This document shows positions 3,459 through 41,795 of a stretch of DNA of 64,000 bases, piece by piece (within the stretch, counting starts at the first letter, position 1; every line of letters begins with the position of its first letter). The translations under genes and the position numbers were made by a program. Origin of the DNA: an uncultured bacterium (GTDB lineage: Bacteria > Patescibacteriota > Minisyncoccia > UBA6257 > GWB1-50-10); the NCBI GenBank assembly GCA_963768835.1, contig CAVYJB010000002.1, positions 208,223-272,222 of the forward strand, given 5' to 3'. The notes beneath the pieces were generated by a model. The model did not search any database, was not told where the DNA came from, and saw nothing but the letters and a program-made list of their open reading frames with translations.

Positions 3459-4853
3459 ATGGGTAGGGTACACTGGAGGAGCGTTTTTCTTATGCCCCAC
3501 TGGTTCAAGCTTTCGAAATTTTTCCTCATTGTAGCAATCGTGAACGTGGTCATCGTCACGACCTCGACGCTCTTCCCGTTCATTGTCGGGAAGTATGCGT
3601 GGTTTCGGACGAGCGTGGACCTCGCTCTCATCACATTTCTCCTCGGGGTTCTCATGGGGGGCGTAGAGGCCACCGATATTCTCGCGCGGCTGAAGCGCAT
3701 TGCGCGCTCGCCCCTCGCTATCGCCGTCACGGTCTTCGTGGCGATGTTTTTGCTTGCTTGCCTCTTCGGCGTCGACCCCCACAACTCTTTCTGGTCCAAC
3801 TTTGAACGGGGCGAGGGTGGATTCCAGGTGCTCCACCTATGGATTTTCTTTGCGCTTCTTGTGGCGCTTTTCCGCACGGACCGCGATTGGTGGAAAGCGT
3901 TCGGGTGGTTCATGGGGGCCGGGATCGTAATGGCGCTCTATGGCATTGGGGCGGGGTTCCAGTGGCAAGGGTTTATCGGTATTCCATTCACGCAGCCTTC
4001 CTACCGCCTCCAAGGCACTATAGGAAACCCAGCTTATGTGGCAACTTACCTTCTCTTTCTCCTGGCATACACTATCTATTTTTTCCTTGATGCGTACCGC
4101 AAACGCCCTCGCGCCGGCGGCGCCATTGCCATCATCGCGTCTTTTGTCGTTCTTCTCGCAGCCTTCTATTTTGCGGCGACTCGTGGGGCTTTCGTAGGAC
4201 TTATCGTGGCGGCCCTCGCATTCCTTGCATACTTTGCATACAGCCATAAAGCATGGCGCAAGTGGCTTATCGCTATCGGCGTGGCCATGGTGGCACTTGT
4301 GATACTCGGGGTGAGCCTCAAAAACAATCCGATAATGCAGAAGATTCCTGGCTCGCGCATCTTCGACCTCTCGTTCACCACGCAGACGTTCCATGATCGC
4401 ACTGTGATTTGGAAGATGGCGTGGGACGGTTTCCTGGCGCGCCCCGTCTTCGGCTGGGGTCCCGAGAACTTTATCAAGGTCTTCGACACGCATTTCAATA
4501 TTGTTTACTTCACGCCCCCGGGTGCGTTCGGGGCCTGGTTCGATCGGGCGCACAGCCTTATCTTTGATTACCTCGCAGAAACAGGCATTATCGGGTTCTT
4601 GAGCTTCGCAGCCGTCTTTGTTGTCTTTTTCCTTGCATTTATCAAGGCGCGGCGACCTGGCTCCGGGGCAGTCCTCGCAGAGAAACCAATCGTTCTCCAA
4701 GCGCTCGTTTTTGCAGTCCCGTTCGCGTACCTCACGCAGGGGCTCGTACTTTTCGATGTGCTGCCCACCTACACAAATGTCTTTTTCTTCCTCGCTCTCG
4801 CGACCTATCTTTTCGCGCGCGGAAACCACACGGAGCATAAACCCCAGTCATGA
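3459..4853 (+). CDS. Wzy_C-family polytopic membrane protein (O-antigen ligase/polymerase or O-oligosaccharyltransferase-like)
   Basis: About 10 or more predicted TM helices. Contains the Wzy_C signature 'AHSLIFDYLAETGIIGF' (H-x-x-x-x-x-YL-x-ETG-x-x-G), which is conserved in WaaL, Wzy and PglL-type enzymes. Confidence 0.6.
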   Translation: MGRVHWRSVFLMPHWFKLSKFFLIVAIVNVVIVTTSTLFPFIVGKYAWFRTSVDLALITFLLGVLMGGVEATDILARLKRIARSPLAIAVTVFVAMFLLACLFGVDPHNSFWSNFERGEGGFQVLHLWIFFALLVALFRTDRDWWKAFGWFMGAGIVMALYGIGAGFQWQGFIGIPFTQPSYRLQGTIGNPAYVATYLLFLLAYTIYFFLDAYRKRPRAGGAIAIIASFVVLLAAFYFAATRGAFVGLIVAALAFLAYFAYSHKAWRKWLIAIGVAMVALVILGVSLKNNPIMQKIPGSRIFDLSFTTQTFHDRTVIWKMAWDGFLARPVFGWGPENFIKVFDTHFNIVYFTPPGAFGAWFDRAHSLIFDYLAETGIIGFLSFAAVFVVFFLAFIKARRPGSGAVLAEKPIVLQALVFAVPFAYLTQGLVLFDVLPTYTNVFFFLALATYLFARGNHTEHKPQS

Positions 4854-5515
4854 CGCAGGAGACCACGACAAACGACAAACACCCGCTTCTCCGGTACTTC
4901 GTCTGTACCGCGGGCATCATTCTCGCGTTCCTTGGCATCGTCTACGGTTCCTTCCTGCCGTTCACGCGATCACAGCGTTTCATTCAGGCCTTGAATGCTT
5001 TGGGTGGTGGACAGATCAAGTCGTTCCAGGATTTCCAAACCACCTTCGATGGAGTCTTCAACTATTATGCTCCGGTGGGCAATGAAGAGGTGGCAAAGTT
5101 TCTCGCAGGTGACGTGATGCAGCTCGTAAGTCAACCTGGGCAGCCGGAGGCCATCGCGCGCATGGTGGTGCAATATATCGAACCGCACATGTTCAAGAAC
5201 GATGTGCGACACCTCCTCTCCCTCGGACAGATGTATTACACGCTCTGGAAGAACTATGGGAAATCCTCAGATTATGTCACGGCGGAAGGATACTACCTTA
5301 AAGCTCTCGCAATCGGCCCCAAACTCCCACCAGTTCTCTACAGCCTCCTTTCGATCTATGCCGAAGCAGGACAAATCGCAAAGGTGAAAGCGGTGGCCGA
5401 AACCATTCTCACGTACTGGCCGCAAGATACGAGTGTGCAGCAAGCGCTCGCTGCCGCGAACGTGGCACTGGCGAGTTCCACAGCTACCTCAACGTCCGCT
5501 CAAAAGCACAAGTAA
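4850..5515 (+). CDS. Hypothetical membrane-anchored protein (N-terminal TM, helical/TPR-like C-terminal part)
   Basis: ATGA start/stop overlap with the upstream gene suggests translational coupling. There is a single N-terminal hydrophobic helix. No recognisable catalytic motif. Confidence 0.4.
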   Translation: MTQETTTNDKHPLLRYFVCTAGIILAFLGIVYGSFLPFTRSQRFIQALNALGGGQIKSFQDFQTTFDGVFNYYAPVGNEEVAKFLAGDVMQLVSQPGQPEAIARMVVQYIEPHMFKNDVRHLLSLGQMYYTLWKNYGKSSDYVTAEGYYLKALAIGPKLPPVLYSLLSIYAEAGQIAKVKAVAETILTYWPQDTSVQQALAAANVALASSTATSTSAQKHK

Positions 5516-5528
5516 GGGGCAAGTAGGA

Positions 5529-5568
5529 ATAGCGCGTTTGCCAACGGACGGCAAACGCGCTATTTTTA
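5529..5568 (+). terminator. Rho-independent terminator
   Basis: Perfect 12-bp stem agcgcgtttgcc / ggcaaacgcgct with aacggac loop, followed by atttttatt. Confidence 0.6.
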
Positions 5569-5621
5569 TTCGAGTATTTTCATATAAAAAAACATCCATT
5601 CACGAATAAGAGAGGGACGAT

Positions 5622-7397
5622 ATGGCGGCGAAAAAGCGGGTGATTCTCGTGGGTCGCTACCACATCATCGAGCCCTTGGGGATTCTGTATCTTCTAGGGG
5701 TCGCAAAGCGGTTGGATTGGGATACGCAGGTGGTGCTTGTGAGCGCGTTTGATTTCGGACCTTTGTTCGAGGAGATCCGTCGCGCAAAACCGGACATCGT
5801 TGGGTTCTCGATCTGGACAGGGTATCATCTGCCCATGTTCGAGGCTTGCGATAAGGTTCGCGCGCTCGGAATCTCCGTTATCATCGGAGGTCCGCACGCG
5901 ACATTCGCCACCGAGCAGTGCGCGGAACATGCCACATGGGTCGTAAAAGGGGAGGGGTTCCGGAATTTCAGGAGGATTCTTGAGGGCGAACTTGAGCCGG
6001 GGGTCCATTTCGACGACGTGCGTATGGCAGAAGGCTTCCCGATGCCGGACCGCGCGCTCGTGTATCGCACCTACCCCGCACTGGGGTTGAATCCCATCAA
6101 GAGCATCATCGCTTCTGTGGGATGCCCCTTCAAGTGCAGCTACTGCTACGCTCCGCACTACAACGATTTGTACGGCGGATTTCTTCTCACGCTCCGGCCC
6201 ATCGACCAGATCATCGAAGAAGCCATCATTATGCGAGACCGTTGGGCGCCTCGGATGGTCTATTTCCAGGACGATATCTTCGGCTTTAACATTCCGTGGC
6301 TTCGAGAGTTCTCGAAGCGGTGGAGAGACGAAGTCGGGATTCCCTGGCATTGCCAAATACGCCTGGAGCTTACCCGCGACGAGGAACGGTTAGACCTGTT
6401 CCGTGAAGCGGGTTGTACCGGCATCACACTTGCCATTGAGTCTGGGAACGCATTCCTCCGGGAGTTCGTCCTTCTCCGGCCGATGCCCGACAACCTTATT
6501 GTGGAGGGTATCCAGCGGATTCGGGCCCGCGGTTTCACGCTGCGGACCGAGCAGATCCTGCAGGTGCCCTTCAGCAATCGTCGGACGGATCTTCAGACGC
6601 TCGAGCTCAATAATCGATTGAATCCCGAGATCGCCTGGACCTCCATCCTTTCGCCGTACGGAGGGACGAATATGGGACGCATCGCGAAGCAGTTCGGATT
6701 CTTTGACGCGAACAATGACGCGTTGCAGGATACGTTCTTCAACCGAAGCGTTCTGCGTCACGTTCGGGACGGCATCGAGACTTTGGAGCCGGTAGTCGCG
6801 AAGGCGCTCCAGGGGAAGGGTGACAACCCATTGCTCCGAATGCGCGTGGAGCCTAACGGTCGGAACAAGGCGCAGGTGTATCTTATGCGCCACGACCCCA
6901 CGGCCCGCGAGGAGCCGGTATGCGAGCTCAAATTCCTTTCTCAAAAAGAGAACGAGCGTTATCGGGATGAGGGAGTCGTGCTCCAACGGCTTTTCGACTG
7001 GTTCTCCCGCGTTCCCAAAGGTTCTGAACTTGCGGAACGGTTCCTTGAGCTTCCTTCGGAAGCGTGGAGCTGGGAGAGGCTGGGGCGGATGACCGAGAAG
7101 CATCTCGGGGACCTCGGCTATGGGGAGCGGATGCGGGATTGGAAGCTTCAACTCGCGCATGAGCTCGGGGTCACACCCGATGCGTTGCCGCGGGGGGTTG
7201 CTGAGAATCCCTTCTACTTCTGCTTTTTCCCATCGGCGGCGGGGTTTGCGCGGACGGTCATCGCGCGGCACGCCTTCGAGCAATCGTCGTTCGAAGCGGA
7301 ACTCTCCATTCTCGGGCGGGAAGTTCGGTACTGGCTCTATGATCATGCGCTCTATCGGATTGAGGGCGCGGAGGAACCTATCACCGTGGATGCATGA
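5622..7397 (+). CDS. B12-binding radical SAM protein (class B radical SAM, methyltransferase-like)
   Basis: CxxxCxxC motif 'CPFKCSYC' preceded by an N-terminal Rossmann-like region of the kind seen in B12-binding radical SAM enzymes. RBS agagggA lies upstream of the ATG, and an AT-rich promoter-like stretch precedes it. Confidence 0.65.
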   Translation: MAAKKRVILVGRYHIIEPLGILYLLGVAKRLDWDTQVVLVSAFDFGPLFEEIRRAKPDIVGFSIWTGYHLPMFEACDKVRALGISVIIGGPHATFATEQCAEHATWVVKGEGFRNFRRILEGELEPGVHFDDVRMAEGFPMPDRALVYRTYPALGLNPIKSIIASVGCPFKCSYCYAPHYNDLYGGFLLTLRPIDQIIEEAIIMRDRWAPRMVYFQDDIFGFNIPWLREFSKRWRDEVGIPWHCQIRLELTRDEERLDLFREAGCTGITLAIESGNAFLREFVLLRPMPDNLIVEGIQRIRARGFTLRTEQILQVPFSNRRTDLQTLELNNRLNPEIAWTSILSPYGGTNMGRIAKQFGFFDANNDALQDTFFNRSVLRHVRDGIETLEPVVAKALQGKGDNPLLRMRVEPNGRNKAQVYLMRHDPTAREEPVCELKFLSQKENERYRDEGVVLQRLFDWFSRVPKGSELAERFLELPSEAWSWERLGRMTEKHLGDLGYGERMRDWKLQLAHELGVTPDALPRGVAENPFYFCFFPSAAGFARTVIARHAFEQSSFEAELSILGREVRYWLYDHALYRIEGAEEPITVDA

Positions 7398-7410
7398 TGG
7401 ATCGGATACC

Positions 7411-7445
7411 AAGTGGCCTGCAGGATATTCTGCAGGCCACTTTTT
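7411..7445 (+). terminator. Rho-independent terminator after the radical SAM gene
   Basis: Perfect 13-bp inverted repeat aagtggcctgcag ... ctgcaggccactt with a 6-nt loop, followed by ttttt. It lies inside the 5' extension of track ORF 7413..8711, so the downstream gene must start later. Confidence 0.7.
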
Positions 7446-7484
7446 GTAATACCATCGACCACTTGGTATAGTTGGAGGAACGAT

Positions 7485-8711
7485 ATGCGGCCGAATGCGC
7501 TCCAACGGATTGAGTTGGCGGTGGTCCGCGGTTACACCGCGTTTCTGAACGCGCTCCTCTCCGCGCTCGAGAAACTGCTTTTTAGACCCCTTACCGCGGA
7601 ACCCAAGAATATCCTCATCTTTAAGGGGGGGAATATTGGGGATATCGTTTGTGCTATCCCGCTTTTCATCGCTATCCGGCGGACCTATCCCAAAGCGCAC
7701 ATCACGCTTATGACCTCGCCGGGCATGCGCGGTATCCCCGGCGCACCCGAACTTCTTACGGGCGCATGGTTTTTGGATGCCATCGAGGTCTACGATTCTA
7801 AGGACATCGATTCATGGGTGAAGCTTCGGCGGTTTGGGGAACGTATCCAGAAGAGGGGATACGACCTCTTCATCCATGTTCCTGTCCATGACTGGATGAA
7901 GTTTCGTACGTTCGTGCGGAACATGCTTTTCATTCGTCTCATGGGCTTCCGGCACGCATTCGGGTTCCGCGTCCGCACCGTCATTCGTCTTTTTCGCAAG
8001 ACACAACTTGATTACACATTCGAAACCAAAGAAGTGGAATCGCTCCTCGAGCTTTTTCGGAAGAACGGCATCCGCGCGGACCGCGTTGAGTTTGATTTTC
8101 CAGTTTCTGCTGCGGATGAAATTCAGGTAGAAGAACTCTTGAAAAAACAATGGCCAGACTTCGAGAAATGGAGTGCGGCCGGTGGGTTGCTCGTCGGTCT
8201 CCACGACGGGAGCAAACGGAAAGAAAAACAGTGGCCGCCAGAACGATTCGGGGAGATGGGGCGCTACCTAGAAAACGCCCACCACGCACGGTTTGTTATT
8301 CTCGGAGGTCCGGCAGATCGAGTGGAAGCGGCGGCTATAAAAGGTTTTCTTGCTTCTCCGGAAGATGCTCTGATCGTGGCAGGCGAACTTTCCATTCTCG
8401 AGGTGGTAGCTCTCCTGCGTCGCGTAAGCTTCCTCCTTTGTATTGACAGCGGAATGATGCACATCGCGGGAGCTCTCGGGAAGCCGACGGTGGGGCTTTT
8501 CTCCATCCTCGGCGTCCTTGGAAGATGGCATCCATATGGTGATAATCACGAAGGGCTTTTCCATCGTTTTTTGAAGTGTAATTACCATACTGTGGAATGC
8601 GTGCGAGAGAGTATGGAGGCCATTACGGTTCCTGAGGTTAAGGCTGCTTGCGACCGCGTGATCCGGCGGCTGCACGAAAACAAAGGACGGACGAAGAAGA
8701 ACCATGAATAG
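7485..8711 (+). CDS. Glycosyltransferase family 9 (ADP-heptose:LPS heptosyltransferase-like)
   Basis: GT9 pattern 'ILIFKGGNIGDIVCAIPLF' and C-terminal 'GGPADR...IDSGMMHIAGALGKPTVGLF'. Start chosen at ATG 7485, which has GGAGG 7 nt upstream and lies downstream of the terminator. Confidence 0.6.
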   Translation: MRPNALQRIELAVVRGYTAFLNALLSALEKLLFRPLTAEPKNILIFKGGNIGDIVCAIPLFIAIRRTYPKAHITLMTSPGMRGIPGAPELLTGAWFLDAIEVYDSKDIDSWVKLRRFGERIQKRGYDLFIHVPVHDWMKFRTFVRNMLFIRLMGFRHAFGFRVRTVIRLFRKTQLDYTFETKEVESLLELFRKNGIRADRVEFDFPVSAADEIQVEELLKKQWPDFEKWSAAGGLLVGLHDGSKRKEKQWPPERFGEMGRYLENAHHARFVILGGPADRVEAAAIKGFLASPEDALIVAGELSILEVVALLRRVSFLLCIDSGMMHIAGALGKPTVGLFSILGVLGRWHPYGDNHEGLFHRFLKCNYHTVECVRESMEAITVPEVKAACDRVIRRLHENKGRTKKNHE

Positions 8712-9630
8712 TTTTAAAGATAACATTCCGGAACCGTTCACAGGTCCTGCGACAGTTCCCGATTCGGAGGCAGAGCGACACATGCTCCAGGAAGCCAATC
8801 GAAGTTTCTGGGAGAAACACCCAATGCGTTATGACTGGAAGGAGCGTGTTGCCTATCCCGAATTCAGCCGAAAGTTCTTTGAGGAGATTGATCGACGTTT
8901 CTTTGAGGACTCGCGCGAGTACGCGCCATGGAGGGAGGTTCCATTCGAACGATTTATCGATTTCGCGGCACTCCCTCACATGGATGTTCTCGAGATTGGG
9001 GTCGGGAATGGGAGCCACGCGGGGCTTCTCGCCGCGCGCGCGAAGTCTTTTACCGGTATCGATCTTACTGGCTACTCCGTGCGGGCCGTCACGGAGCGGT
9101 TCAAGGTTTTCGGTCTGCGCGGGAAGATTCTTCAGATGGACGCCGAAAGGTTGGAATTCCCGGATGCGAGCTTCGATTTTGTCTGGAGCTGGGGCGTCAT
9201 TCACCATTCCTCGAACACGCCCCGGATTCTCCGGGAAATCCGCCGCGTGCTTCGGCCAGGCGGCACCGCCGCTATCATGGTTTATCACCGCGGATGGTGG
9301 AACTACTATGTGGTTGGGTTCCTCCGAGGCATTGTATCAGGGACGCTCTTGCAGACGAGGTCGCTTCACACGAGCATCCAGCTCCAGACTGACGGTGCCA
9401 TTGCGCGTTACTACTCGAAGCGTGACTGGCGGGCGCTCGCGCAATCAATAGGTTTTGGGTGTCGGCAGACAGGCATTTTCGGTCCTAAATCCGATGTGCT
9501 ACCACTTCCAGCTAGCGCTTTTAAGAACGTATTGCGGAGGGTTCTACCAGACTTCTTCTCGCGCTTTCTTACACACACCCTTAGCATGGGAGGCTTTCTT
9601 GTATCCGAGCTCTCCACCCCTCTTCGCTAA
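8704..9630 (+). CDS. Class I SAM-dependent methyltransferase (Methyltransf_11-like)
   Basis: Motif I 'VLEIGVGNGSHAG' and post-motif 'DASFDFVWSWGVIHH'. Paralogous to 28041..28823. Confidence 0.65.
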   Translation: MNSFKDNIPEPFTGPATVPDSEAERHMLQEANRSFWEKHPMRYDWKERVAYPEFSRKFFEEIDRRFFEDSREYAPWREVPFERFIDFAALPHMDVLEIGVGNGSHAGLLAARAKSFTGIDLTGYSVRAVTERFKVFGLRGKILQMDAERLEFPDASFDFVWSWGVIHHSSNTPRILREIRRVLRPGGTAAIMVYHRGWWNYYVVGFLRGIVSGTLLQTRSLHTSIQLQTDGAIARYYSKRDWRALAQSIGFGCRQTGIFGPKSDVLPLPASAFKNVLRRVLPDFFSRFLTHTLSMGGFLVSELSTPLR

Positions 9631-9637
9631 CCATTCC

Positions 9638-10573
9638 ATGACAATCGCGAGAAAAAAACGGAGCGTTCGTGAGGCAATTCGAGATACATTCGTGAAGACG
9701 GTGCGGTTTTTGCAGCGGGGGCACGGGTGGGGGCGGTTCAAGATCGTCAACATCCTATGGAACTTCGGTTATTCCACCGTAAAGGGTCTAATGAAAAACC
9801 CGAATGGGACCGTACCCGTCGGTCGGTTCCAGATGCGTCTGGATCCGGAGGATTCACTCGGCCTCTCGGTCTTTGGCGTCTACGAGCCCTTCTCGACAGA
9901 AGTGGTAAAACAACGGGTGGAACACGGCCAGGTGGCCGTGGATGTGGGAGCGAACATTGGATACTATACGTTACTGCTAAGCGACCTCGTCGGGACCACT
10001 GGAAAGGTGTTTGCGTTTGAGCCGGACCTGGGCAACTTTTCTATTCTGAAAGGGAACCTCGACGCGAATCATTGCCTGAATGTCATCCCGGAACAGGAAG
10101 CTCTCTCTGACGAAACAGGGAACGGGAAGCTCTACCTAAACCGTGAAAACCGAGGCGATCACCGTATCTTCGCCTCGGAGAAAAAACAGAAATCTGTGGC
10201 CGTGCGGACCGTATGCCTCGACGACTACCTTGAGAGGTTTCAGCAAAGGATTGATTTTGTGAAGATCGACGTTCAGGGCGCCGAGTACCGAGTACTCCGA
10301 GGCATGGAGAAGACGCTTCGCCGGAGCCCGAACGTAAAGATCCTTATGGAATATTGGCCGTACGCGCTGCGGGCAGCTGGTGCGGAGCCCCGCACGACTC
10401 TCGAGTTCCTCTCTCGAATGGGATTCGATTTGTGGAATGCCGACGAGCATCGAAAAGCGCTCATGCCTCTCACTGATCTGAGTGCGTTCCTCGCAGCATT
10501 CCCTCCCGAGAACACTGATTCGGTGAATCTCTTTGCTGCGAAGCGCGAAGCGGGCTCTTTTGTCGCGGTTTGA
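9638..10573 (+). CDS. FkbM-family methyltransferase
   Basis: 'VAVDVGANIGYYTLLL...KVFAFEPD' and 'DFVKIDVQGAEYRVLRGM' are characteristic of the FkbM domain. Start moved to ATG 9638 to avoid overlap with the upstream gene; the track ORF starts at 9455. Confidence 0.65.
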   Translation: MTIARKKRSVREAIRDTFVKTVRFLQRGHGWGRFKIVNILWNFGYSTVKGLMKNPNGTVPVGRFQMRLDPEDSLGLSVFGVYEPFSTEVVKQRVEHGQVAVDVGANIGYYTLLLSDLVGTTGKVFAFEPDLGNFSILKGNLDANHCLNVIPEQEALSDETGNGKLYLNRENRGDHRIFASEKKQKSVAVRTVCLDDYLERFQQRIDFVKIDVQGAEYRVLRGMEKTLRRSPNVKILMEYWPYALRAAGAEPRTTLEFLSRMGFDLWNADEHRKALMPLTDLSAFLAAFPPENTDSVNLFAAKREAGSFVAV

Positions 10574-10604
10574 CGGAGATATCCTTTCTCGCTAGCATAA
10601 CCCT

Positions 10605-11651
10605 ATGAAGTACGCGCTCGTGACCGGCGTGACGGGGCAAGACGGCTCCTATATGGCGGAGCTCCTGCTTTCTAAGGGATACACTGTGTACGGGGTCGTA
10701 CGTCGGTCCTCTGTTTTTAACACCGAGCGCATCGATCATCTTATCCACGACCGGCACGAGAAAGGCGTGAAGTTTTTCCGCCTGCATGCCGACCTCTCCG
10801 ATGCGGGGAGCCTCTACAAAATCATTCGCGAGGTCCAGCCTGACGAGGTATACCATCTCGGGGCACAGTCGCATGTGCGGCTAAGCTTCGATATGCCGGA
10901 GTATACCGCCGATGTCACAGGCGTGGGGACTCTTCGGCTCCTCGAAGCGGTCCGAAACTTCGAGGCCACAAATCCCAGCAAGAAGATCAAGTTCTACCAG
11001 GCTTCGAGCTCCGAGATGTTCGGCTCCTCCCCCCCTCCTCAAAACGAGCGGACCCGTTTCGAACCCCAAAGCCCCTACGGCGTCGCCAAGGTTTTCGCGT
11101 ACCAGTCGACGGTGAACTATCGGCGGGGGTTCCAGATGTTCGCGGTGAACGGTATCCTCTTCAACCATGAATCGCCGCGGCGGGGCGGCACCTTTGTTAC
11201 ACGCAAGATTACTCGTGGGGTCGCCGCCATCGCGGCGGGGAAAATCGAGAAGCTTTTCCTCGGGAACCTCGAGGCCAAGCGCGACTGGGGGTATGCACCG
11301 GAGTTTGTGGAGGCGATGTGGCGGATGCTCCAAGAGCCCGAGCCCGACGACTATGTCGTCGCGACGGGGGAGAGCCACACGGTGCGGGAGTTCGCGGAAC
11401 GGGCATTTGGGCACGCCGGTATGGATCTTATCTGGGATGGCGAAGGTTTGAATGAAAAAGGCATAAACCGGAAGACCGGCCGGATTGTGGTGGAGATCGA
11501 CCCCTCCTACTTCCGTCCCACGGAGGTGGACGATCTTCGTGGGGACGCCTCGAAGGCGCGTGAGCGGCTCGGCTGGAAACCCACCGTCACCTTCGATGAG
11601 CTCGTGCGCATCATGGTGGAGAGTGACCGGGAGGGGACCGGCACTCGATAG
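10605..11651 (+). CDS. gmd: GDP-mannose 4,6-dehydratase
   Basis: N-terminus '[35 protein letters not shown]' plus '[17 protein letters not shown]' (YxxxK) and '[10 protein letters not shown]' are near-canonical Gmd sequence. Confidence 0.85.
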
Positions 11652-30076: not shown

Positions 30077-30114
30077 TTTTGCGCTTTCCCTTCTTTTAGT
30101 TATAATGCAGCTGC

Positions 30115-34492: not shown

Positions 34493-34503
34493 CCCCCGCT
34501 CAT

Positions 34504-35055
34504 ATGCCGAAGAAGAATATTGAAATAGAGTATCGCGCGCGTTTTGACGAGAAGAAACACATTGAGCTTCAAAAATTCTTGAGCGCAAAAGCGCAGGATT
34601 TAGGGCAGGACGACAAGGATGTCTATTTCTTTCTATTTCCGGACAAGCTCGTGAAGACGGTGAATAATATATCAAAGAAGACCGCGAAGATCGTTCTAAA
34701 ACTGAATAAGATTGGCAAGGGAAGCATTTTCGAGGAAATTGAGATTCCCATCAATTCAGGAGACTTCGATAAAGCGACAAGGCTTTTTGTCGCGCTTGAG
34801 ACGGGCGAGTATATGCACTCGTTCCAGAAACGGCACAACTATCTCTATAAAGGCGTTGAACTAGCGCTGAAGTGGAGCGAGACGTGGGGCTATCATCTGG
34901 AACTCGAAATTGTCATGGATGATGCCGAGGGGAAAGGAGATGCCGAAAGAAAGATATCCGCAGTTGCAGAAGAGTTAGGGATTAAAACCATGACAGACCA
35001 AGAGCTTTCGGAGTTTACGCAGGCTGCGGAGGCGGAATACAAGAAGCAGAAATGA
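34504..35055 (+). CDS. CYTH-domain protein (triphosphate tunnel metalloenzyme / CyaB-like)
   Basis: N-terminal 'NIEIEYRARF' matches the ExExK/R opening beta-strand signature of CYTH. Basic/acidic residues alternate along predicted beta-strands. The gene is low-GC. Confidence 0.4.
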   Translation: MPKKNIEIEYRARFDEKKHIELQKFLSAKAQDLGQDDKDVYFFLFPDKLVKTVNNISKKTAKIVLKLNKIGKGSIFEEIEIPINSGDFDKATRLFVALETGEYMHSFQKRHNYLYKGVELALKWSETWGYHLELEIVMDDAEGKGDAERKISAVAEELGIKTMTDQELSEFTQAAEAEYKKQK

Positions 35056-36005
35056 ACAAGATTTTGGACTCTACGAACTTTGTCGTTCAGGACTCCCGTT
35101 CTGTGAAAATCAACAGAATAAAGGTCTCTGAATTCTCGAAGATTTTCAAGCAGGAGGAAACTAATGACTTACTGAGCCAGGCCCCATTCGATTTTTCGGG
35201 ATTCAGTGACGATGAAAGGTTTAGATTTACACTCATCTTCCAGTCGATCAATTTCTGTTATTGGGGTGACCCCAAGTGGACAATTGAGCACGATGGGAAA
35301 CTCTACGATGGTGCTTGGGGCATGGTCGTCGCGCTGGGGCAAGGTATCCGAGATGGGTTTCCACTTCTCGACTTTAGGTATTGCTCGAAGATAACCAAAG
35401 ACGACCTTGGAAGAATTTTGCGGGCGAACACCGAGATTCCGCTGTTCGAAGAACGCTGGCGAATCCTCCAAGAGATTGGGTTGGTGATGTTAAGTAAATA
35501 CGAAGAGGGGTTAACCTCGCTTGTCGCTAATTCAAACTCCGATGCCGCAAGACTACTCGATGTGATCGTGCGGGATTTTCCTTCATTTAGAGATAGCTCA
35601 AGCTATCGGGGGCGAGAGGTGTTTTTCCAGAAGAGGGCTCAGCTGCTTATTACGGATCTTTGTCAGATGTTGAAGAGACAGGGTGTTATGCTCAAAAACA
35701 TTGATCAACTTACTGCTTGTGCAGACTACAAGCTCCCGCAGATTATACGACGACTCGGGATACTGGAATATGCCGACCAGCTCGCGAAAACAATCGACAG
35801 TAAGATCGAGCTCCCGCATGGGTCGGATGAGGAGGTCGAGATACGCGCTAACACCATTTGGGCAGTGGAGTATATGAAAGAAGAGATACAGAGACAAAGT
35901 CCAGATGTCACTTCAATGGAGATCGACGGTTATCTGTGGCAAGCCAGCCAGGAAAAGCCGGTTGACGAGAAGCCTTATCATCGAACAAGGACAACGGCAT
36001 ATTAG
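35052..36005 (+). CDS. Queuosine-salvage family (DUF2419/Qng1-like) protein
   Basis: 'FQSINFCYWGDPKWTIEHDGKLYDGAWGMVVAL' resembles the conserved core of the Q_salvage family. Low-GC gene that overlaps the stop of the upstream CYTH gene. Confidence 0.4.
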   Translation: MNKILDSTNFVVQDSRSVKINRIKVSEFSKIFKQEETNDLLSQAPFDFSGFSDDERFRFTLIFQSINFCYWGDPKWTIEHDGKLYDGAWGMVVALGQGIRDGFPLLDFRYCSKITKDDLGRILRANTEIPLFEERWRILQEIGLVMLSKYEEGLTSLVANSNSDAARLLDVIVRDFPSFRDSSSYRGREVFFQKRAQLLITDLCQMLKRQGVMLKNIDQLTACADYKLPQIIRRLGILEYADQLAKTIDSKIELPHGSDEEVEIRANTIWAVEYMKEEIQRQSPDVTSMEIDGYLWQASQEKPVDEKPYHRTRTTAY

Positions 36006-36029
36006 GCCCGTGGTATCCTTCCTCTAGAC

Positions 36030-36542
36030 ATGACCAATCCTTCCACAACCTGTCCCGGCTGTGGAATTGTGCTACCCGCCGGTTCAATACGAGCGAACGG
36101 GCTCGGCAACCGATCTCCTGAATGCCAGGAACTTTTCCACGAGTTGTCTTTCTACACGCTCGCGCATCCCAAGCCCTCCTTCTTTATCCATCAGTACGCC
36201 GTGGATGCCTACGCGGCGCAGCATGCGGGGCCAAAGACAAAGCCCATAACCGTGGCCTTCGCCCTGACGGGTCTCCATCTTTTCATAACGTATGGGTACT
36301 CGGGCCGAGAGGTCCAGAAGGCGCATATGTACATGGCGAAGCAAAGGAAGGAGTGGCCGACGTTCGCCATCCCGAAAACCAAGGGAGCACTCACGGTTCG
36401 GGATGTGATACAAGCTCCGGCCGGTCCGGAACGTGATAAGGCGATAAAGAACTGGGCTCGGTCGGTCTGGGCCGTATGGAGCGGTGAGCACAAGGCCGTT
36501 GCAGACCTCCTCGTGTCGCTGAACCTCCCGCCCGCTCGTTGA
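36030..36542 (+). CDS. Hypothetical Cys-containing protein (possibly DUF5946-like, zinc-ribbon N-terminus)
   Basis: 'CPGCG...SPEC' is a putative Zn-binding N-terminus. High GC, unlike the two upstream genes. No functional motif recognised. Confidence 0.4.
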   Translation: MTNPSTTCPGCGIVLPAGSIRANGLGNRSPECQELFHELSFYTLAHPKPSFFIHQYAVDAYAAQHAGPKTKPITVAFALTGLHLFITYGYSGREVQKAHMYMAKQRKEWPTFAIPKTKGALTVRDVIQAPAGPERDKAIKNWARSVWAVWSGEHKAVADLLVSLNLPPAR

Positions 36543-36670
36543 CTCCCTATCGGCTAATACGTGCGAATAAGAAAATAAGGGAATCGCTTCGTGATGCAAC
36601 GTTCTTGAAATCAGGATTTCCAGCCTCTACCATTTAGGTAGAGACCTTTCATATTCGGAGGGAAACAGAT

Positions 36671-37255
36671 ATGGGACTCTTATTACTTCTGCTTCTCGTG
36701 GTGCTCTACGCGCGATACTTGTTTGAAGACCTCCCGGAGCATAGAAGAATTCTGAGGTTGCAGGAGGCCGGGCTCAGGGCTACCAATGAGGACTGCGACG
36801 CGAGTGATGCAATGGACAACTGGCGTCTTGCGAATCCCACCATAGGGTTCGGCGACTCTGCGTATGCCCAAGAACTGGTATGGAGACGTATTGCCGCTTG
36901 GCGACGATTCATGGAGACCCACCCGCACGTGCAAGACCGCGGCTTCACCGCTTTTCTCTATTCTCTCCTCGACCAGCGCGGGTCACCGCCACCCGCCCAT
37001 CACTTACCGCTTTCTAAACGGCCTCCTACGGAGGCCGTTCTTTTTATACCTAGCCGAACCACTCGTCGTACCAGAGCGAAAGCGTTACGAGATTCCAGAT
37101 GCGGAAGTTATGCTCCACACCCCGTTCTTGGTGCGCATGGACAAGCGTGTTCACATAGTCGTAGTCGAGGATACCGCGCTCGCGGAGCTTGGAGTTCAGG
37201 ATGGCGTCCACGAAGAGTGGCGCCATTTTTGATTCTGGCTTCAGCCACTCACTAA
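36671..37255 (+). CDS. Hypothetical protein with a hydrophobic N-terminus; the 3' end is doubtful
   Basis: GGAGGG lies 7 nt upstream of the ATG, and the N-terminus 'MGLLLLLLLVVLYARYLF' looks like a signal/TM segment. The first ~110 aa look protein-like. The distal part is R/S/P-rich and overlaps the asnB-like 3' end on the other strand, so a frameshift or artefactual extension is possible. Confidence 0.25.
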   Translation: MGLLLLLLLVVLYARYLFEDLPEHRRILRLQEAGLRATNEDCDASDAMDNWRLANPTIGFGDSAYAQELVWRRIAAWRRFMETHPHVQDRGFTAFLYSLLDQRGSPPPAHHLPLSKRPPTEAVLFIPSRTTRRTRAKALRDSRCGSYAPHPVLGAHGQACSHSRSRGYRARGAWSSGWRPRRVAPFLILASATH

Positions 37256-38969: not shown

Positions 38970-38979
38970 AGGTTAAGGG

Positions 38980-40479
38980 TTAGGGCAAGGGGTGCTCCGC
39001 GAGTCCTTCGCGACCCCGGAGAGCTTGGAGAATGGTACGGAGCTCGTGCACTAGAGGTTCCCGGAGGAGAAAGAGCGCCCCAACATAGACCGCGACGGAG
39101 GTGAAAAGGGTCAGCACCACCGATATCCCTCGGGCGTTCAAGACCCACGCCACGACCGCCATAATCACGGTTGCGATGGCGATGCGCGGAAGGTTTCGGA
39201 GGGTCGGGAAACGTATCATGCGCTGGCGCACGATACGCCACATAAGACCGTTGTTAAAGATGAGCGCGACGATGGTGGCGGCCGAGCAGCCAGCAATCCC
39301 GAAGGGTGGGATGAGGAGGATGTCGAAGAGGATGTTCGCAACACTTCCGAGGATCACAGGCACCGCGAGCCGTAGTTGCTGGTTGTACGCGATGGAGAGG
39401 TTCCCGAGGAGGGTCCCAGGAAAGACGAGGAGGACGGTGACGACGAGGAATCGGAAAGCCGCGGCCGCGGGGGCGTACTCCACTCCGTAGAGCAGCACCA
39501 TGAGCGGCTTTGCAAGAACGACGCCGCCGACTGCCATGGGTACTGCGACGAAGAGCACCGCGCGCATAGCCTGCTCCATCAATTCCTTGATTTTCGCCTC
39601 ACGCGCCTGCCGCACGAACCGGGACATCGCGGGGAAAATAGCGGCGGCGAGGATGGCAGGCAGAATGTAGAGGAGTTGGAGCACCTTCTGCGCGGCGGAG
39701 TAGTACCCGAGCTCCGTAGCGGTGCGCCACCACCCGAGCATCACAAAGTCGGTATTCAGCATGAAGGTGCCGAGAAGGCCAATGACGGCGATGGGGACGG
39801 CGGCTCGGAGAACGGGGCGCACGAGGCTCCGCTCGAACTTAGAGAAAATCTGCGACACCTGCTTGCGGACGATAATGAGTACGACAAGCGTGCCGAGGCC
39901 GGAGCTCGCGACGTAGGCGACGGTGAGAGCTCCGGCGGTGTGGGAAAGGGTTAGGATGACGAAGCCCGCGACCGTGATAGCGAGGTTTGTGAAGGTATTG
40001 ATGAACGCCTCAATCTCCATCTTTTCGAGGGCGCGCAGGTAGGATAGGCAAAAATCCCGCATGCCATCGAAAATAGTAAGAAGTGCCATGAAGGGGATGA
40101 GGACCCGGGCGGCGGGGATGTTCGAGAGCGACGGAGCCACGAAGATCATAATGAGGGCTGTGGCGGTCAGAAGCACCGCCTTGATCCAGAAGGTGGTGGC
40201 GAAGATTTGTAGGCGACGCTCGGGGTTTTGGCTCGCCTCGCGCGTAAGGATGTTGCTCACACCGATGTCGGCAAAGATGGTGAAAAACCCGGCGACCCCC
40301 AGCACGTAGGAGAAAACGCCGTAGTCTGCGGCTCCCAGAAGTCGCGCGGCGTAGATGATGATGGCGGCGCGGATTACACGGCCCGCAATCTGTCCGAACG
40401 AGAGCCAGAACACGTTTTTCACGATGGTCTGGCGCGTTCCGCGATTGTGGAGGAAGAACTCCCGAAGACGTGCAAACAT
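38980..40479 (-). CDS. Wzx-type oligosaccharide flippase (second copy)
   Basis: The polytopic N-terminus 'RQTIVKNVFWLSFGQIAGRVIRAAIIIYAARLLGAADYGVF' is clearly homologous to 23914..25407. Confidence 0.6.
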   Translation of the reverse strand: MFARLREFFLHNRGTRQTIVKNVFWLSFGQIAGRVIRAAIIIYAARLLGAADYGVFSYVLGVAGFFTIFADIGVSNILTREASQNPERRLQIFATTFWIKAVLLTATALIMIFVAPSLSNIPAARVLIPFMALLTIFDGMRDFCLSYLRALEKMEIEAFINTFTNLAITVAGFVILTLSHTAGALTVAYVASSGLGTLVVLIIVRKQVSQIFSKFERSLVRPVLRAAVPIAVIGLLGTFMLNTDFVMLGWWRTATELGYYSAAQKVLQLLYILPAILAAAIFPAMSRFVRQAREAKIKELMEQAMRAVLFVAVPMAVGGVVLAKPLMVLLYGVEYAPAAAAFRFLVVTVLLVFPGTLLGNLSIAYNQQLRLAVPVILGSVANILFDILLIPPFGIAGCSAATIVALIFNNGLMWRIVRQRMIRFPTLRNLPRIAIATVIMAVVAWVLNARGISVVLTLFTSVAVYVGALFLLREPLVHELRTILQALRGREGLAEHPLP

Positions 40480-40484
40480 GGGGT

Positions 40485-41795
40485 TCAGCCGTGCGAGGCG
40501 AAGAGATACCGGACGGTTTTCAGGATGATGAGGAGATCGAGAACGAGGGAACGGTTCTTGATGTAATAGATGTCATACCGCAGTTTCTCATAGGCTTCTT
40601 CAGGGGACGCGCTCGGTTTGTAGTTAATCTGCGCCCATCCCGTGAGGCCCGGTTTCACCATGTGCCGCATCCCGTAGTAGGGGAGCCGCTCGTATTGCCG
40701 CACGAGTTCCACCCGTTCGGCGCGCGGGCCCGTGAGGGAAAGATCGCCGCGGAAGACATTCAAAAGTTGGGGGAACTCATCGAGGTGGGTAAAGCGAAGA
40801 ACTCGACCGACAGGGGTGAGGCGCGGATCATGCGCTTCCGTCCAGAGCGGTCCGTGATTCTCGCGCATTGTGCGGAACTTAAAGAGTGTGAAAGGGATAC
40901 CATTCTTCCCAACCCGTTCCTGTCGAAAGATGACGGGGCCGCGAGAGGAGAGCGCAATAAGGATCGCCGAGAGAAGCATAAAAGGGGAAAATATCACAGT
41001 TGTGAGAGTCGAGATGGCGATATCGACTAAGCGTTTCAGGGCGTCGTAGAAAGGACGTCGGGTAGTGATGTTCTCCAGAAACCACGCCTCCGCGAGTTCG
41101 TCGAGGGGGATCTTCTCAAAAACGAGTTCATAAAAATCCCAAAAATTAAGGATACCAACCTCGAGAGGAAGGAGACGGTATACCGCAGAGAGCACGTCCA
41201 GGTTGCTCGCGAAGTGCGGCTGAACTACGACGAGATGAACTCGCCGATTCTCGATCGCTGTTCGTAGGATGCGAAAATCCTCCGGGTGGGGGTCCGAGAT
41301 ACGAAGCTCAATCCGATACCCCGCAGTCGGATTCTCTTTGAGGAAGTGAGCTGTTTCCTCCGCGAGAGGCGAGGTTCCTAAAAAGGCCACCCCAAGCGCG
41401 CCTGAAGCGAAGAGACGCAGGAAAAGGGAACGAATGAAGAAGTCGAGCCCAAGGAAGAGAACGCTGAAAATGAGGAGATTCGTCTTCGGCGTCAGCCGGA
41501 AAAAATCTCCGAAAAGATAGAGCGCTACTGTCGAAAGTAGGGCCGCGACAACAACGGTTGCCGTGAGAGTCGAAAGAAGCGCCGCACGGTTTGGGGCCCT
41601 CCGGTGCCGGTAGAGGTCCGCGAGGTAAAACACAAAGAGCCACAAGATAAAAAGAGCTGAGAACGGCACAAGGTGGCTCTGCCAGCTTTGGGGGAAGGCC
41701 GAAAAGCCATAACGCACAAGAAGCGCCAGGACAAGGGCGGCGTAGAGGGCGGCGAGGTCGCCGGCTAAGAGAACCAGCTTCTTCCAGGTAGACAT
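40485..41795 (-). CDS. Polyprenyl-phosphate hexose-1-phosphate transferase (WbaP/WcaJ-like initiating phosphoglycosyltransferase, Bac_transf domain)
   Basis: The C-terminal 'RPGLTGWAQINY' / 'DELPQLLNVFRGDLSLTGPRAE' block is characteristic of the Bac_transf family. It is preceded by several TM helices. Confidence 0.75.
   Translation of the reverse strand: MSTWKKLVLLAGDLAALYAALVLALLVRYGFSAFPQSWQSHLVPFSALFILWLFVFYLADLYRHRRAPNRAALLSTLTATVVVAALLSTVALYLFGDFFRLTPKTNLLIFSVLFLGLDFFIRSLFLRLFASGALGVAFLGTSPLAEETAHFLKENPTAGYRIELRISDPHPEDFRILRTAIENRRVHLVVVQPHFASNLDVLSAVYRLLPLEVGILNFWDFYELVFEKIPLDELAEAWFLENITTRRPFYDALKRLVDIAISTLTTVIFSPFMLLSAILIALSSRGPVIFRQERVGKNGIPFTLFKFRTMRENHGPLWTEAHDPRLTPVGRVLRFTHLDEFPQLLNVFRGDLSLTGPRAERVELVRQYERLPYYGMRHMVKPGLTGWAQINYKPSASPEEAYEKLRYDIYYIKNRSLVLDLLIILKTVRYLFASHG

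Follow-up and report, generated by a model that had tools for sequence, protein, structure and literature searches.

What would a small-genome bacterium build with about as many methyltransferases as glycosyltransferases? The question is raised by positions 3459-41795 of a 64-kb stretch of DNA from an uncultured bacterium (hereafter the window, position 1 being its first letter; sample ERR11594402), which an initial annotation had described as a single ~37-kb locus for a heavily methylated, hydrophobic glycan. Our best overall explanation, to which we assign a probability of roughly 0.6, is a composite, Wzx-dependent locus that resembles surface-layer glycosylation (slg) clusters and would make a heavily O-methylated heteroglycan with a 3-C-methyl-6-deoxyhexose. 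The broader description, of a methyl-rich locus for a surface glycan that depends on Wzx and is hypervariable in its centre, we hold with high confidence.

Every candidate gene in 3459-41795 was searched against Pfam, and key genes also against NCBIfam, which reproduced all the domain calls of the initial annotation. Related loci were gathered around three anchors, namely relatives of the window's sugar C-methyltransferase in reference genomes (50 loci, 43-66% identity), relatives of its initiating phosphoglycosyltransferase (PGT) in metagenomes (80 PGT-centred loci), and homologs of one GT4 glycosyltransferase and of a radical S-adenosylmethionine (SAM) enzyme. The nearest relatives of the window's FtsZ (68-77% identity) are named Patescibacteria, Jorgensenbacteria, Paceibacterota or Minisyncoccia, which bears out the small-genome uncultured lineage first proposed and indicates that the host belongs to the Patescibacteria (candidate phyla radiation, CPR).

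Methyltransferases interleaved with glycosyltransferases

Nine genes encode secure SAM methyltransferases (MTs), comprising four of the FkbM family, four of class I and one C-methyltransferase (C-MT) of the TylC3/MtmC type, and two further calls are weaker:

5622-7397, plus strand: B12-binding radical SAM enzyme (PF02310, 46 bits; PF04055, 51 bits; CPFKCSYC motif)
8704-9630, plus strand: class I MT a (MT11_a; Methyltransf_11, 82.8 bits; VLEIGVGNG), its start overlapping the stop of the GT9 gene
9638-10573, plus strand: FkbM a (PF05050, 81 bits; TIGR01444, 118 against a cut-off of 37.7; DVGANIG)
15033-15929, plus strand: FkbM b, in a low-GC cassette (PF05050, 59 bits; GC 0.44), with 45-47% identical homologs in Nitrospira and Acidiferrobacterales loci
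17040-17897, minus strand: FkbM c (PF05050, 82.5 bits), 41% identical to FkbM a
17894-18670, minus strand: MT-fold protein of class I whose SAM loop, LEIGN, is degenerate (Methyltransf_23, 22.6 bits against a cut-off of 27)
18809-20122, plus strand: C-MT, NDP-4-keto-6-deoxyhexose 3-C-methyltransferase of TylC3/MtmC/TcaB9 type (Methyltransf_13, Methyltransf_23 and Methyltransf_14)
21213-21971, plus strand: class I MT b (Methyltransf_23/11/31/25/12, all above cut-off; LDAGCGTG)
22005-22718, plus strand: FkbM d, in the low-GC cassette (PF05050, 45 bits; TIGR01444, 63 bits; GC 0.46)
26563-27189, plus strand: class I MT c (Methyltransf_11, 74.9 bits), overlapping both neighbouring glycosyltransferase genes, with a 59% identical homolog in one related locus
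28041-28823, plus strand: class I MT d, in the conserved arm (Methyltransf_11, 84.6 bits), with 53-55% identical homologs in the syntenic loci L055 and L071

All nine secure MTs are full length, carry an intact SAM motif I (glycine-rich loop) and have no transmembrane segment. As paralogs they are divergent (25-41% identity), which suggests distinct specificities, and they appear to be old copies rather than recent or decaying duplicates. The four FkbM proteins score 45-82 bits against PF05050 (cut-off 22.7) and 63-118 against TIGR01444 (cut-off 37.7) and share a DVGAxxG loop, and sugar O-methylation is the activity suggested for them by their position among glycosyltransferase (GT) genes and by a weak match of FkbM c to V_cholerae_RfbT (PF05575, 20.9 bits, below the cut-off of 27.9). 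Class I MT d has D-glucose O-methyltransferase (6uv6) among its top named matches in the Protein Data Bank (PDB). Literature searches on CPR glycan methylation and on FkbM in O-antigens found nothing relevant.

At least 11 MT genes had been counted initially, from which the two weaker calls stand apart: the radical SAM enzyme, discussed below, may be no methylase, and the protein at 17894 lacks the SAM glycine loop. The latter has a class I fold by hhalign against a class I profile (96.8%, E 2.8e-10), and its activity is uncertain because the GxGxG loop is replaced in the family by a conserved LEVGN with no GxG. Eight homologs occur in C-MT-bearing loci, immediately beside C-MT in five and within 2-5 kb of it in the other three, and members of the family may be partners without activity of their own, or enzymes that bind a cofactor in an unusual way.

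All 10 MT-fold genes of the 64-kb window fall within 8.7-28.8 kb, for which P (at least 10 of 33 genes) is 6e-10 to 3e-6, assuming that 2-5% of genes are MTs. GTs and MTs alternate with overlapping codons in three runs (by gene start, 7413>8704>9638; 20216>21213>22005>22742; 25404>26563>27176>28041). Because the MTs are interleaved with GTs and often translationally coupled to them, we interpret them as glycan-tailoring enzymes, and coupling this tight suggests per-residue tailoring. Housekeeping MTs were considered and rejected on this interleaving and on the NCBIfam search; the FkbM and class I calls proved to be real MTs, with domain scores above cut-off and no housekeeping equivalog threshold reached.

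Methyltransferase density among related loci

How exceptional is this density? Counting MTs with iterated hidden Markov models (HMMs) on all open reading frames (ORFs) of loci of at least 10 kb, we found 1-8 MTs in each of 42 relatives of the window (mean 3.2), with MTs equalling or outnumbering GTs in 20 of them and a pooled MT/GT ratio of 0.84, or 0.58 without the selecting C-MT. The window has 10 MT-fold genes in 21 kb around C-MT, the highest density found, and its ratio of 9-10 MTs to 9 GTs preserves the initial estimate of about one MT per GT. The PGT-centred CPR loci give a baseline with a median of 0 MTs, a maximum of 3 and a pooled MT/GT ratio of 0.27. In E. coli at most one putative MT is found, in a few ABC-type O-antigen clusters, where it terminates chains, the O-units themselves bearing no methyl groups (PMC7685785). 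Against both yardsticks, the claim of a density far above that of ordinary O-antigen loci is upheld.

The same comparison shows that the system is not unique. The cultured bacterium Nitrospira moscoviensis (strain NSP M-1; NZ_CP011801, 3.293-3.314 Mb) carries an MT-rich cassette with five firm MTs and one weak one (three FkbM, one class I, C-MT and a weak MT23-like gene by Pfam) to seven GTs in 21 kb, and metagenome-assembled genomes (MAGs) reach about seven; locus L041 has ~7 MTs after a Pfam check, the HMM count of 8 having arisen from one FkbM gene split in two. The window, with 10 MT-fold genes against 1-8, is the upper extreme of a continuum into which a cultured bacterium also falls, and is not a lone outlier.

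Assembly and flipping of a polyprenol-linked glycan

The genes between which the MTs lie are those of glycan assembly:

7413-8711, plus strand: GT9 (called gene 7485-8711, from locus L135; PF01075, 85.5 bits)
11691-12896, plus strand: GT4 a (PF00534, 108 bits)
13840-14916, plus strand: Glyco_trans_1_2 GT, a cassette member (PF13524, 88 bits), with 53-56% identical homologs in five related loci
16057-17028, plus strand: GT2 a, in the low-GC cassette (PF00535; GC 0.46)
20216-21208, plus strand: GT2 b, in the low-GC cassette (PF00535, 68.7 bits), 38% identical to GT2 a
22742-23911, plus strand: GT4 b (PF13692/PF00534)
23914-25407, plus strand: Wzx flippase 1 (PF01943, 122 bits; 14 hydrophobic segments)
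25404-26582, plus strand: GT4 c (PF00534/PF13579), where the conserved right arm begins
27176-28054, plus strand: GT2 c, in the conserved arm (PF00535), with 47-59% identical homologs in 12 PGT-centred loci
28850-30121, minus strand: GT4 d (PF00534/PF13579)
30115-31359, plus strand: NDP-sugar 6-dehydrogenase, UDP-ManNAc dehydrogenase-like (TIGR03026, 408 against 190; NF008286, 378 bits, below the cut-off of 459)
31366-33534, plus strand: bi-domain ADH_zinc_N and Gfo/Idh/MocA oxidoreductase (Pfam), with 54-55% identical homologs in L055 and L071
33440-34492, plus strand: glucuronyl C5-epimerase-like protein (PF06662, 160 bits), with 58-61% identical homologs in L055 and L071
37050-38969, minus strand: AsnB-type glutamine amidotransferase (TIGR01536, 510 against 267), with 60-68% identical homologs adjoining Wzx flippase 2 and the PGT in relatives
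38980-40479, minus strand: Wzx flippase 2, conserved partner of the PGT (PF01943, 120 bits; 14 hydrophobic segments)
40485-41795, minus strand: PGT of WbaP/WcaJ type, a polyprenyl-phosphate hexose-1-phosphate transferase (PF02397, 207 bits; TIGR03025, 337 against a cut-off of 296)

Pfam identifies nine GTs (one GT9, five of GT1/GT4 type and three GT2) and in addition the Bac_transf-domain PGT, where about 10 GTs had been counted initially, and the two Wzx-type flippases called at the outset are both confirmed. The PGT is the only initiating enzyme in the window, and together with a Wzx flippase, here in two copies, it defines a polyprenol-linked locus of Wzx type. A Wzx homolog is present in 50 of the 80 PGT-centred loci, mostly directly downstream of the PGT among the matches listed. 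More than 120 clusters contain relatives of GT4 c (50-63% identity), and the names that they bear are Patescibacteria, Jorgensenbacteria or Brennerbacteria. The GT9 gene belongs to the heptosyltransferase family, yet the window's locus has no heptose pathway.

Neither Wza nor Wzc was detected in the locus, and no ABC transporter (Wzm/Wzt) was found by Pfam in 3459-41795, where the Wzx flippases take its place. This absence argues against membership in the slg subtype, and by analogy would not count against transfer by an O-oligosaccharyltransferase (O-OTase), as PglL systems use flippases. Two other kinds of product were set aside: a cytoplasmic polymer like the mycobacterial polymethylated polysaccharides was rejected, given the PGT, Wzx and Wzy_C-family genes, and a lipopolysaccharide (LPS) O-antigen proper was judged unlikely, the Wzy_C protein having matched no NCBIfam model, whether of O-antigen ligase or otherwise. 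CPR bacteria are not known to have lipid A or an outer membrane.

The dehydrogenase, the C5-epimerase-like protein and the AsnB-type enzyme, which probably amidates uronic acids, form a predicted uronic-acid module, owing to which the product need not be purely hydrophobic. The hydrophobic glycan of the initial annotation is accordingly a conjecture, with genes that point to (amidated) uronic acids.

A predicted pathway to a C-branched 6-deoxyhexose

Which sugar would the C-MT methylate? The protein aligns over its full length with PDB entries for MtmC (4rv9; E 2.6e-58, residues 7-425), a 'sugar 3-C-methyl transferase' (5t64) and TcaB9, has the three domains of this family (a Methyltransf_13 Zn-ribbon, a class I SAM domain and Methyltransf_14) and conserves its motifs (CxxC..C..C at the Zn site, VIDIGSNDG at the SAM loop, and HEHLEY). 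Two further genes bear on its substrate:

10605-11651, plus strand: GDP-mannose 4,6-dehydratase, Gmd (TIGR01472 equivalog, 522 against a cut-off of 415)
12932-13831, plus strand: PseB/FnlA-like short-chain dehydrogenase/reductase (SDR) with a Polysacc_synt_2 domain (PF02719, 229 bits; TIGR03589, 221, below the cut-off of 408)

A Gmd ortholog (at least 46% identity) lies within 10 kb of C-MT in 24 of the 50 C-MT-anchored loci, directly adjacent in four, and because of this proximity the substrate of C-MT is probably GDP-4-keto-6-deoxymannose, GDP being the nucleotide that the gene neighbourhood suggests. A route through Gmd and a TylCIII-type enzyme has been proposed for virenose in Coxiella (PMC3539893). 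We consider it probable that the window's pathway yields a GDP-linked 3-C-methyl-6-deoxyhexose. The SDR could be either a UDP-HexNAc 4,6-dehydratase-type enzyme or a 4-ketoreductase, and 4-ketoreduction may be supplied by it or by a bifunctionality like that of MtmC.

Relatives of C-MT (43-66% identity) are found mostly in CPR bacteria and DPANN archaea (Nanoarchaeota, Woesearchaeota and Micrarchaeota), and also in Nitrospira, Sulfuricaulis, Comamonadaceae and others. The gene is shared across domains, by ultra-small symbionts and free-living bacteria.

The B12-domain radical SAM enzyme

The gene at 5622-7397 encodes a class B type architecture, with a B12-binding N-terminal domain and a CxxxCxxC core, and falls outside every characterised methylase subfamily in NCBIfam, its equivalog scores lying far below cut-off (HpnJ, the best, 66 against 578; AprD4, 61 against 500; PhpK, 60 against 600). 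Its AlphaFold2 model (pLDDT, the per-residue confidence score, 95.4) retrieved AprD4 (6.6e-18) and MgmA (1.8e-16) in Foldseek, followed by OxsB, TsrM, CysS and TokK. AprD4 is the best match by sequence and fold, at an identity of only ~21%, and is a sugar 1,2-diol dehydratase and not a methylase; the cobalamin methylases MgmA, TsrM, CysS and TokK score similarly. The protein shares with AprD4 and with the C-methylases GenK and GenD1 the B12-type Rossmann N-terminus, the CxxxCxxC core and a carbohydrate-pathway context, and differs from them in an extra C-terminal helical domain of ~220 aa. Cobalamin-dependent radical SAM C-methylation of sugars has a precedent in gentamicin biosynthesis (PMC5819394), and judged from the model the enzyme may be a C-methylase or an AprD4-like sugar dehydratase.

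It belongs to an unnamed family of ~590 aa that recurs at 50-73% identity across Patescibacteria and also occurs in Pyrinomonadaceae and Stellaceae; JGI labels its members BchE or YgiQ, which are mis-labels. The family also occurs apart from glycan loci (L137), the Stellaceae homolog lies outside any glycan context, and in a Brennerbacteria genome (L134:1-3878) a tandem pair of radical SAM genes with B12 domains (662-663 aa), which may or may not belong to the family, stands beside a GDP-heptose-type pathway.

These uncertain enzymes raise the question of whether the glycan is only modestly methylated, and not hydrophobic, its MTs being partly inactive, redundant or alternatively expressed (strain or phase variation), or acting on uronic-acid carboxyls, amines or the lipid carrier. 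The missing GxG loop at 17894, the closeness of the radical SAM enzyme to a non-methylase, the lack of a specificity signal from the class I enzymes, the uronic-acid and amidation genes, and the fact that MTs of known systems often only cap chain ends (PMC7685785; PMC2943079) all speak for such a product. Nine MTs are nonetheless full length with intact SAM motifs, their divergence marks them as old paralogs and not as duplicates in decay, and their coupling to GTs suggests tailoring residue by residue; we regard modest methylation as quite unlikely and keep to a heavily O-methylated heteroglycan.

A surface protein and its putative transferase

To what would the glycan be attached? The left end of the stretch and the sequence immediately upstream offer a likely acceptor and transfer machinery, which the initial annotation had overlooked:

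4-3336, plus strand: S-layer-like surface protein, candidate acceptor (PF01471, PG_binding_1); its 5' end falls outside the window, and the full gene (L135:1728-5219, 1163 aa) was taken from L135
3386-3416, plus strand: terminator-like GC hairpin followed by a T-run, read from the sequence, at the left edge of the glycan operon
3459-4853, plus strand: Wzy_C-family membrane protein (called gene 3492-4853, 453 aa; PF04932, 73 bits against 31.7; ~10-12 hydrophobic segments)
4850-5515, plus strand: single-pass tetratricopeptide repeat (TPR) membrane protein of 221 aa, WsaA-like and a conserved partner of Wzy_C

The surface protein consists of a signal peptide, a peptidoglycan (PG)-binding domain, a (GGN)n linker and a region of ~1000 aa that is rich in Ser and Thr (S+T 23.5%; N 8.8%; charged residues 7%) and in A and G, with many N-x-S/T sequons. 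The TPR protein family adjoins Wzy_C in nine loci, and its members match TPR_14 (4 of 8) and TPR_19 (3 of 8), with a best E of 1.8e-6. A Wzy_C-domain transferase with a TPR motif, either in cis or in a small protein encoded alongside, is the arrangement by which such O-OTase systems have been defined (PMC2943079). The Wzy_C domain is found in WsaB and WsfB; the TPR comes as a separate small protein in WsaA and forms part of the transferase itself in PglL and WsfB. In published slg clusters an S-layer gene lies nearby, other members include a methyltransferase, a homolog of Asn synthase and a PGT like WbaP, and GC is low in the centre (PMC2943079). The triad of surface protein, Wzy_C and TPR partner matches these S-layer glycosylation clusters, and the Wzy_C protein is a candidate O-OTase, ligase or polymerase. 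In a Paceibacterota MAG a homolog of the surface protein immediately precedes Wzy_C, and in Jorgensenbacteria (L136/L138) one lies beside it. Linkage of the glycan to the S-layer-like protein is a tentative assignment, to which we give somewhat less than even odds.

The same genes could instead make a wall-linked, membrane-anchored or secreted repeat-unit polysaccharide (a capsule, an exopolysaccharide or a secondary cell-wall polymer), with Wzy_C as a polymerase or non-protein ligase and the surface protein there by coincidence. A PGT, a Wzx and a Wzy_C-family protein are the canonical Wzx/Wzy layout, sequence does not assign Wzy_C to the O-OTases, two Wzy_C loci (L012 and L038) have no upstream surface protein, and through the protein's PG-binding domain a wall-associated polymer could equally be its partner. 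Such a polymer would, however, be expected to have company that the searches did not find, as no Wzz or polysaccharide co-polymerase (PCP) chain-length regulator domain occurs in any ORF scanned (Pfam) and no second Wzy-like membrane protein was detected in 3459-41795 (Pfam and hydrophobic-segment scan). The conserved TPR partner, moreover, parallels the O-OTase systems WsaA/WsaB, PglL and WsfB, and the adjacency of surface protein and Wzy_C recurs in three CPR genomes. We take the polymer seriously and would still not expect it to prove correct, and we retain the S-layer-glycosylation-like locus as our reading.

In the Jorgensenbacteria relative an AbiEii/DUF6922 toxin-antitoxin-like pair separates the S-layer-like gene from Wzy_C (L136:20209-21092 / L138:2135-3018), and a 23S_rRNA_IVP gene separates Wzy_C from its TPR partner; both are small mobile insertions into the same hotspot.

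A composite locus with a variable centre

Is the ~37-kb stretch one locus? What stands of that initial claim is the set of genes for a polyprenol-linked, Wzx-dependent glycan; the stretch itself is composite, with lineage-conserved ends, a hypervariable, horizontally fed centre and an interruption by three unrelated genes. The left end (S-layer-like protein, Wzy_C and TPR partner) and the right end (GT4/GT2/MT, Wzx and PGT beside housekeeping genes) recur in related CPR genomes. Around the PGT these share, at 45-68% identity, the order FtsZ-FtsA-YbeY-YqeY-HIT-HisS-LepB-Pth-(TrxR-DsbA)-PGT-Wzx2-(AsnB), then GT4_d-(C5epi-ADH/Gfo)-GT2_c-(MT_c or MT_d)-GT4_c, and such synteny suggests that the ends are inherited vertically in the host's CPR clade. 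Beyond GT4 c the content of the relatives differs, with a GDP-heptose-type pathway, one to four MTs and, once, the tandem B12-radical SAM genes; in L132-L134 the variable centre holds a full set of genes for GHMP kinase, SIS, HAD and NTP-transferase, amounting to a pathway of GDP-glycero-manno-heptose type. The Jorgensenbacteria relative shares the window's left boundary, where Wzy_C and the TPR protein are again found with a giant PG-binding protein, and has a compact island, with no FkbM or class I MTs between Wzy_C and a second PG-binding gene.

Within the centre lies a cassette in the order Gmd, GT1_2, (FkbM), C-MT, GT2, FkbM, MT23-like gene, GT2, which recurs in N. moscoviensis, a Nitrospira MAG, Sulfuricaulis, an Acidiferrobacterales MAG and a Patescibacteria MAG. 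Six cassette genes of the window have a GC content of 0.44-0.49, against 0.55-0.61 elsewhere, and the cassette region of N. moscoviensis is likewise GC-poor (0.46-0.52) in a genome of ~62% GC. Conserved flanks around a variable centre are what O-antigen, capsule and slg loci classically show. tRNA genes, integrases and mobility marks were sought at the island borders, and the sole tRNA is a tRNA-Lys outside the locus (55739-55812, minus strand).

The interruption is a block with no glycan role that is not part of the system:

34504-36542, plus strand: CYTH, Q_salvage (queuosine salvage/DUF2419) and DUF5946 genes (Pfam)

These genes follow the C5-epimerase gene directly on the same strand, CYTH and Q_salvage have a GC content of 0.45-0.47, and in the syntenic L055 and L071 no homologs of them were detected in the corresponding place; the block looks like an insertion into the glycan locus. 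A further ORF at 36671-37255 looks spurious.

Two glycans might then be encoded side by side, their methyl load split and the '37-kb locus' a mere adjacency of a core at ~25.4-41.8 kb (PGT, Wzx flippase 2, AsnB, uronic-acid module, three GTs and two MTs) and an accessory set at ~3.5-25.4 kb (Wzy_C, Wzx flippase 1, six GTs, seven or eight MTs and the radical SAM enzyme). Such a division would explain why there are two Wzx flippases, why the right arm is conserved with housekeeping synteny when left and centre vary, why Nitrospira and Gammaproteobacteria have the C-MT cassette but not the CPR core, and why three unrelated genes split the stretch. Yet the window has a single initiating PGT and a single Wzy_C, the adjacency of Wzx flippase 1 and GT4 c is itself conserved (L003 and L132), and a single O-antigen-, capsule- or slg-type locus typically has a variable low-GC centre between conserved ends. 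We consider two glycans unlikely.

A last alternative, that housekeeping MTs clustered by chance or that a chimeric assembly introduced the low-GC segment, could draw on the fall in GC in the six genes and on an uneven protein collection: the window's Gmd (10605-11651) has no exact database match and GT4 c (25404-26582) a best match of 63%, when FtsZ (51953-53158) and the radical SAM enzyme (5622-7397) of the same contig have 100% matches. The absence of Gmd and GT4 c is a database gap, not a biological signal. Genes of low GC lie among genes of normal GC on one strand, separated by short gaps, the same neighbourhoods occur in independent assemblies that include a closed genome (L045), and an independent 13-kb Logan contig reproduces window positions 1-11.1 kb; the missing housekeeping equivalogs and the clustering probabilities reported above oppose the chance version. 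An artefact is highly improbable, and we return to a composite, S-layer-glycosylation-like locus.

A model of glycan synthesis and its difficulties

In the model we favour, the WbaP-type PGT would start a polyprenyl-PP-linked glycan, which the nine cytoplasmic GTs would extend. Gmd would provide GDP-4-keto-6-deoxymannose, and the TylC3/MtmC-type enzyme would methylate it at C3 to give a branched 3-C-methyl-6-deoxyhexose. Eight soluble O- (or N-/ester-) MTs (four FkbM and four class I), each beside a GT, would methylate residues of the lipid-linked glycan on the cytoplasmic face, before flipping, and the NDP-sugar dehydrogenase, the C5-epimerase-like protein and the AsnB-type enzyme would add (amidated) uronic acids. 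Wzx would then flip the glycan, and Wzy_C and its TPR partner in the membrane would transfer it, by analogy with WsaB/WsaA or PglL, the likeliest acceptor being the Ser/Thr-rich, PG-anchored S-layer-like protein encoded immediately upstream.

Several observations weigh against this model. There are two Wzx flippases and one PGT, which leaves one glycan or two, and slg clusters use Wzm/Wzt ABC transporters, not Wzx. The acceptors of the MTs are predictions: two class I MTs queried against the PDB match only a generic SAM core, with no signal of acceptor specificity, and FkbM c has no close solved relative in a PDB sequence search (again only a generic SAM core). For the C-MT pathway, the locus has no dedicated GDP-sugar 4-reductase (none of Fcl/Rmd type) or epimerase, only Gmd and the PseB-like SDR. 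The Wzy_C protein has no NCBIfam and no PDB sequence match (even at E<=1), and O-OTase, ligase and polymerase are not separable; the adjacency of the surface protein is absent in L012 and L038, and most loci come without upstream DNA. The PGT-centred baseline for MT density, finally, is an imperfect one, as the 10 kb on either side of the window's own PGT also contain no MTs and distal islands are missed.

Comparison with known systems

Closest in organisation are the slg clusters of Geobacillus stearothermophilus NRS 2004/3a and Paenibacillus alvei (PMC2943079), which have in common with the window an adjoining surface-layer gene, a Wzy_C transferase (WsaB/WsfB), a small TPR protein (WsaA) or TPR motif, a WbaP-like PGT (WsaP), methyltransferase activity (the 2-O-MT domain of WsaE), an Asn-synthase homolog (wsfA in P. 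alvei) and the lowest GC in central, strain-specific genes. They differ in exporting by Wzm/Wzt where the window has two Wzx, in having one capping MT where it has 9-10, in dTDP-rhamnose chemistry where it has GDP-6-deoxyhexose and C-methylation, and in a Firmicute rather than a CPR host; for the window, the acceptor and the O-OTase are candidates. The Wzx/Wzy O-antigen and capsule loci of E. coli (PMC7685785) likewise have a PGT, GTs, Wzx and a Wzy_C-family protein, and conserved flanks around a variable low-GC centre that is a hotspot of horizontal transfer, but contain at most one putative MT, against an MT:GT ratio of ~1:1 in the window, where the Wzz and Wza/Wzc of such loci went undetected.

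For the C-branched sugar, the in silico route to virenose (6-deoxy-3-C-methylhexose) in Coxiella burnetii (PMC3539893) is alike in its Gmd and TylCIII-type C-MT, its surface-glycan context and its uncertain 4-ketoreductase step, and differs in belonging to an LPS O-antigen of a diderm with no O-MT array; the Coxiella pathway is itself unproven. The actinomycete 3-C-methyltransferases (TylC3/EryBIII, MtmC, TcaB9 and 5t64) agree with the window's enzyme in three-domain architecture, full-length alignment and motifs. They act, however, on dTDP-sugars for antibiotics, whereas the partner Gmd of the window's C-MT implies a GDP-sugar and a product destined for a surface glycan, and the family of the window's enzyme extends to CPR, DPANN and Nitrospira.

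The mycobacterial methylmannose polysaccharide (MMP) cluster (MeT1, pMeT3, ManT and MmpH; PMC9883506) resembles the window in the concept of alternating glycosyl transfer and O-methylation, and differs in being a four-gene cluster for a cytoplasmic homopolymer, with no lipid carrier, flippase or PGT, as opposed to the PGT, Wzx, Wzy_C and nine diverse GTs of the window. No PDB match labelled as an MMP methyltransferase was returned for the three MTs queried. For the role that the initial annotation gave to FkbM enzymes in MMP or methylglucose lipopolysaccharide (MGLP) synthesis no confirmation was found, 'FkbM' not being mentioned in the MMP/MGLP papers found in our literature search.

Other features of the window

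Outside the glycan locus, a 1746-aa ORF at 55936-61176 (plus strand) has a hydrophobic segment at its N-terminus and occupies a GC-rich stretch (0.59-0.63), with the tRNA-Lys gene just upstream. Long antisense ORFs overlie it on the minus strand (55849-57456, 57688-58704 and 58867-61173).

Significance

Every enzyme family found here is already known, as are the logic of PGT, GTs, tailoring enzymes, Wzx and Wzy_C, methylated surface glycans and C-branched sugars. New are the extent and variety of the MT set, with about one MT per GT, the joint presence of a TylC3-type C-MT, FkbM and class I MTs (four of each) and a radical SAM enzyme with a B12 domain, the occurrence in a CPR host with a candidate triad of S-layer protein, O-OTase and TPR partner, and a cassette common to CPR and free-living bacteria such as Nitrospira, its C-MT also being present in DPANN archaea. 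We judge the significance to be moderate, because no enzyme family is new and the chemistry is only predicted. At its most far-reaching, and as a long shot, CPR bacteria would coat an S-layer protein with a strain-specific, hyper-methylated heteroglycan, most of its residues O-methylated, carrying a 3-C-methyl-branched 6-deoxyhexose and a modification made by the ~590-aa radical SAM family; the glycan would be built from a mobile cassette that CPR and free-living bacteria such as Nitrospira exchange, and such a hydrophobic coat, resistant to enzymes and phages, would be key to host range or to attachment as episymbionts.

CPR bacteria account for much of bacterial diversity, have tiny genomes and live attached to other cells. 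The locus offers predicted handles on their surface chemistry, in the S-layer/O-OTase/TPR triad, the pathway to a GDP-linked 3-C-methyl-6-deoxyhexose and the unnamed B12-domain radical SAM family, and N. moscoviensis, with the same methyl-rich cassette, is a cultured proxy open to chemical analysis. Methyl-rich glycan cassettes are common to very distant lineages, and the ~38 kb (~7%) of a 552-kb contig that this organism gives to one glycan locus with 9-10 MTs suggests strong selection for surface-glycan diversification in its lineage.

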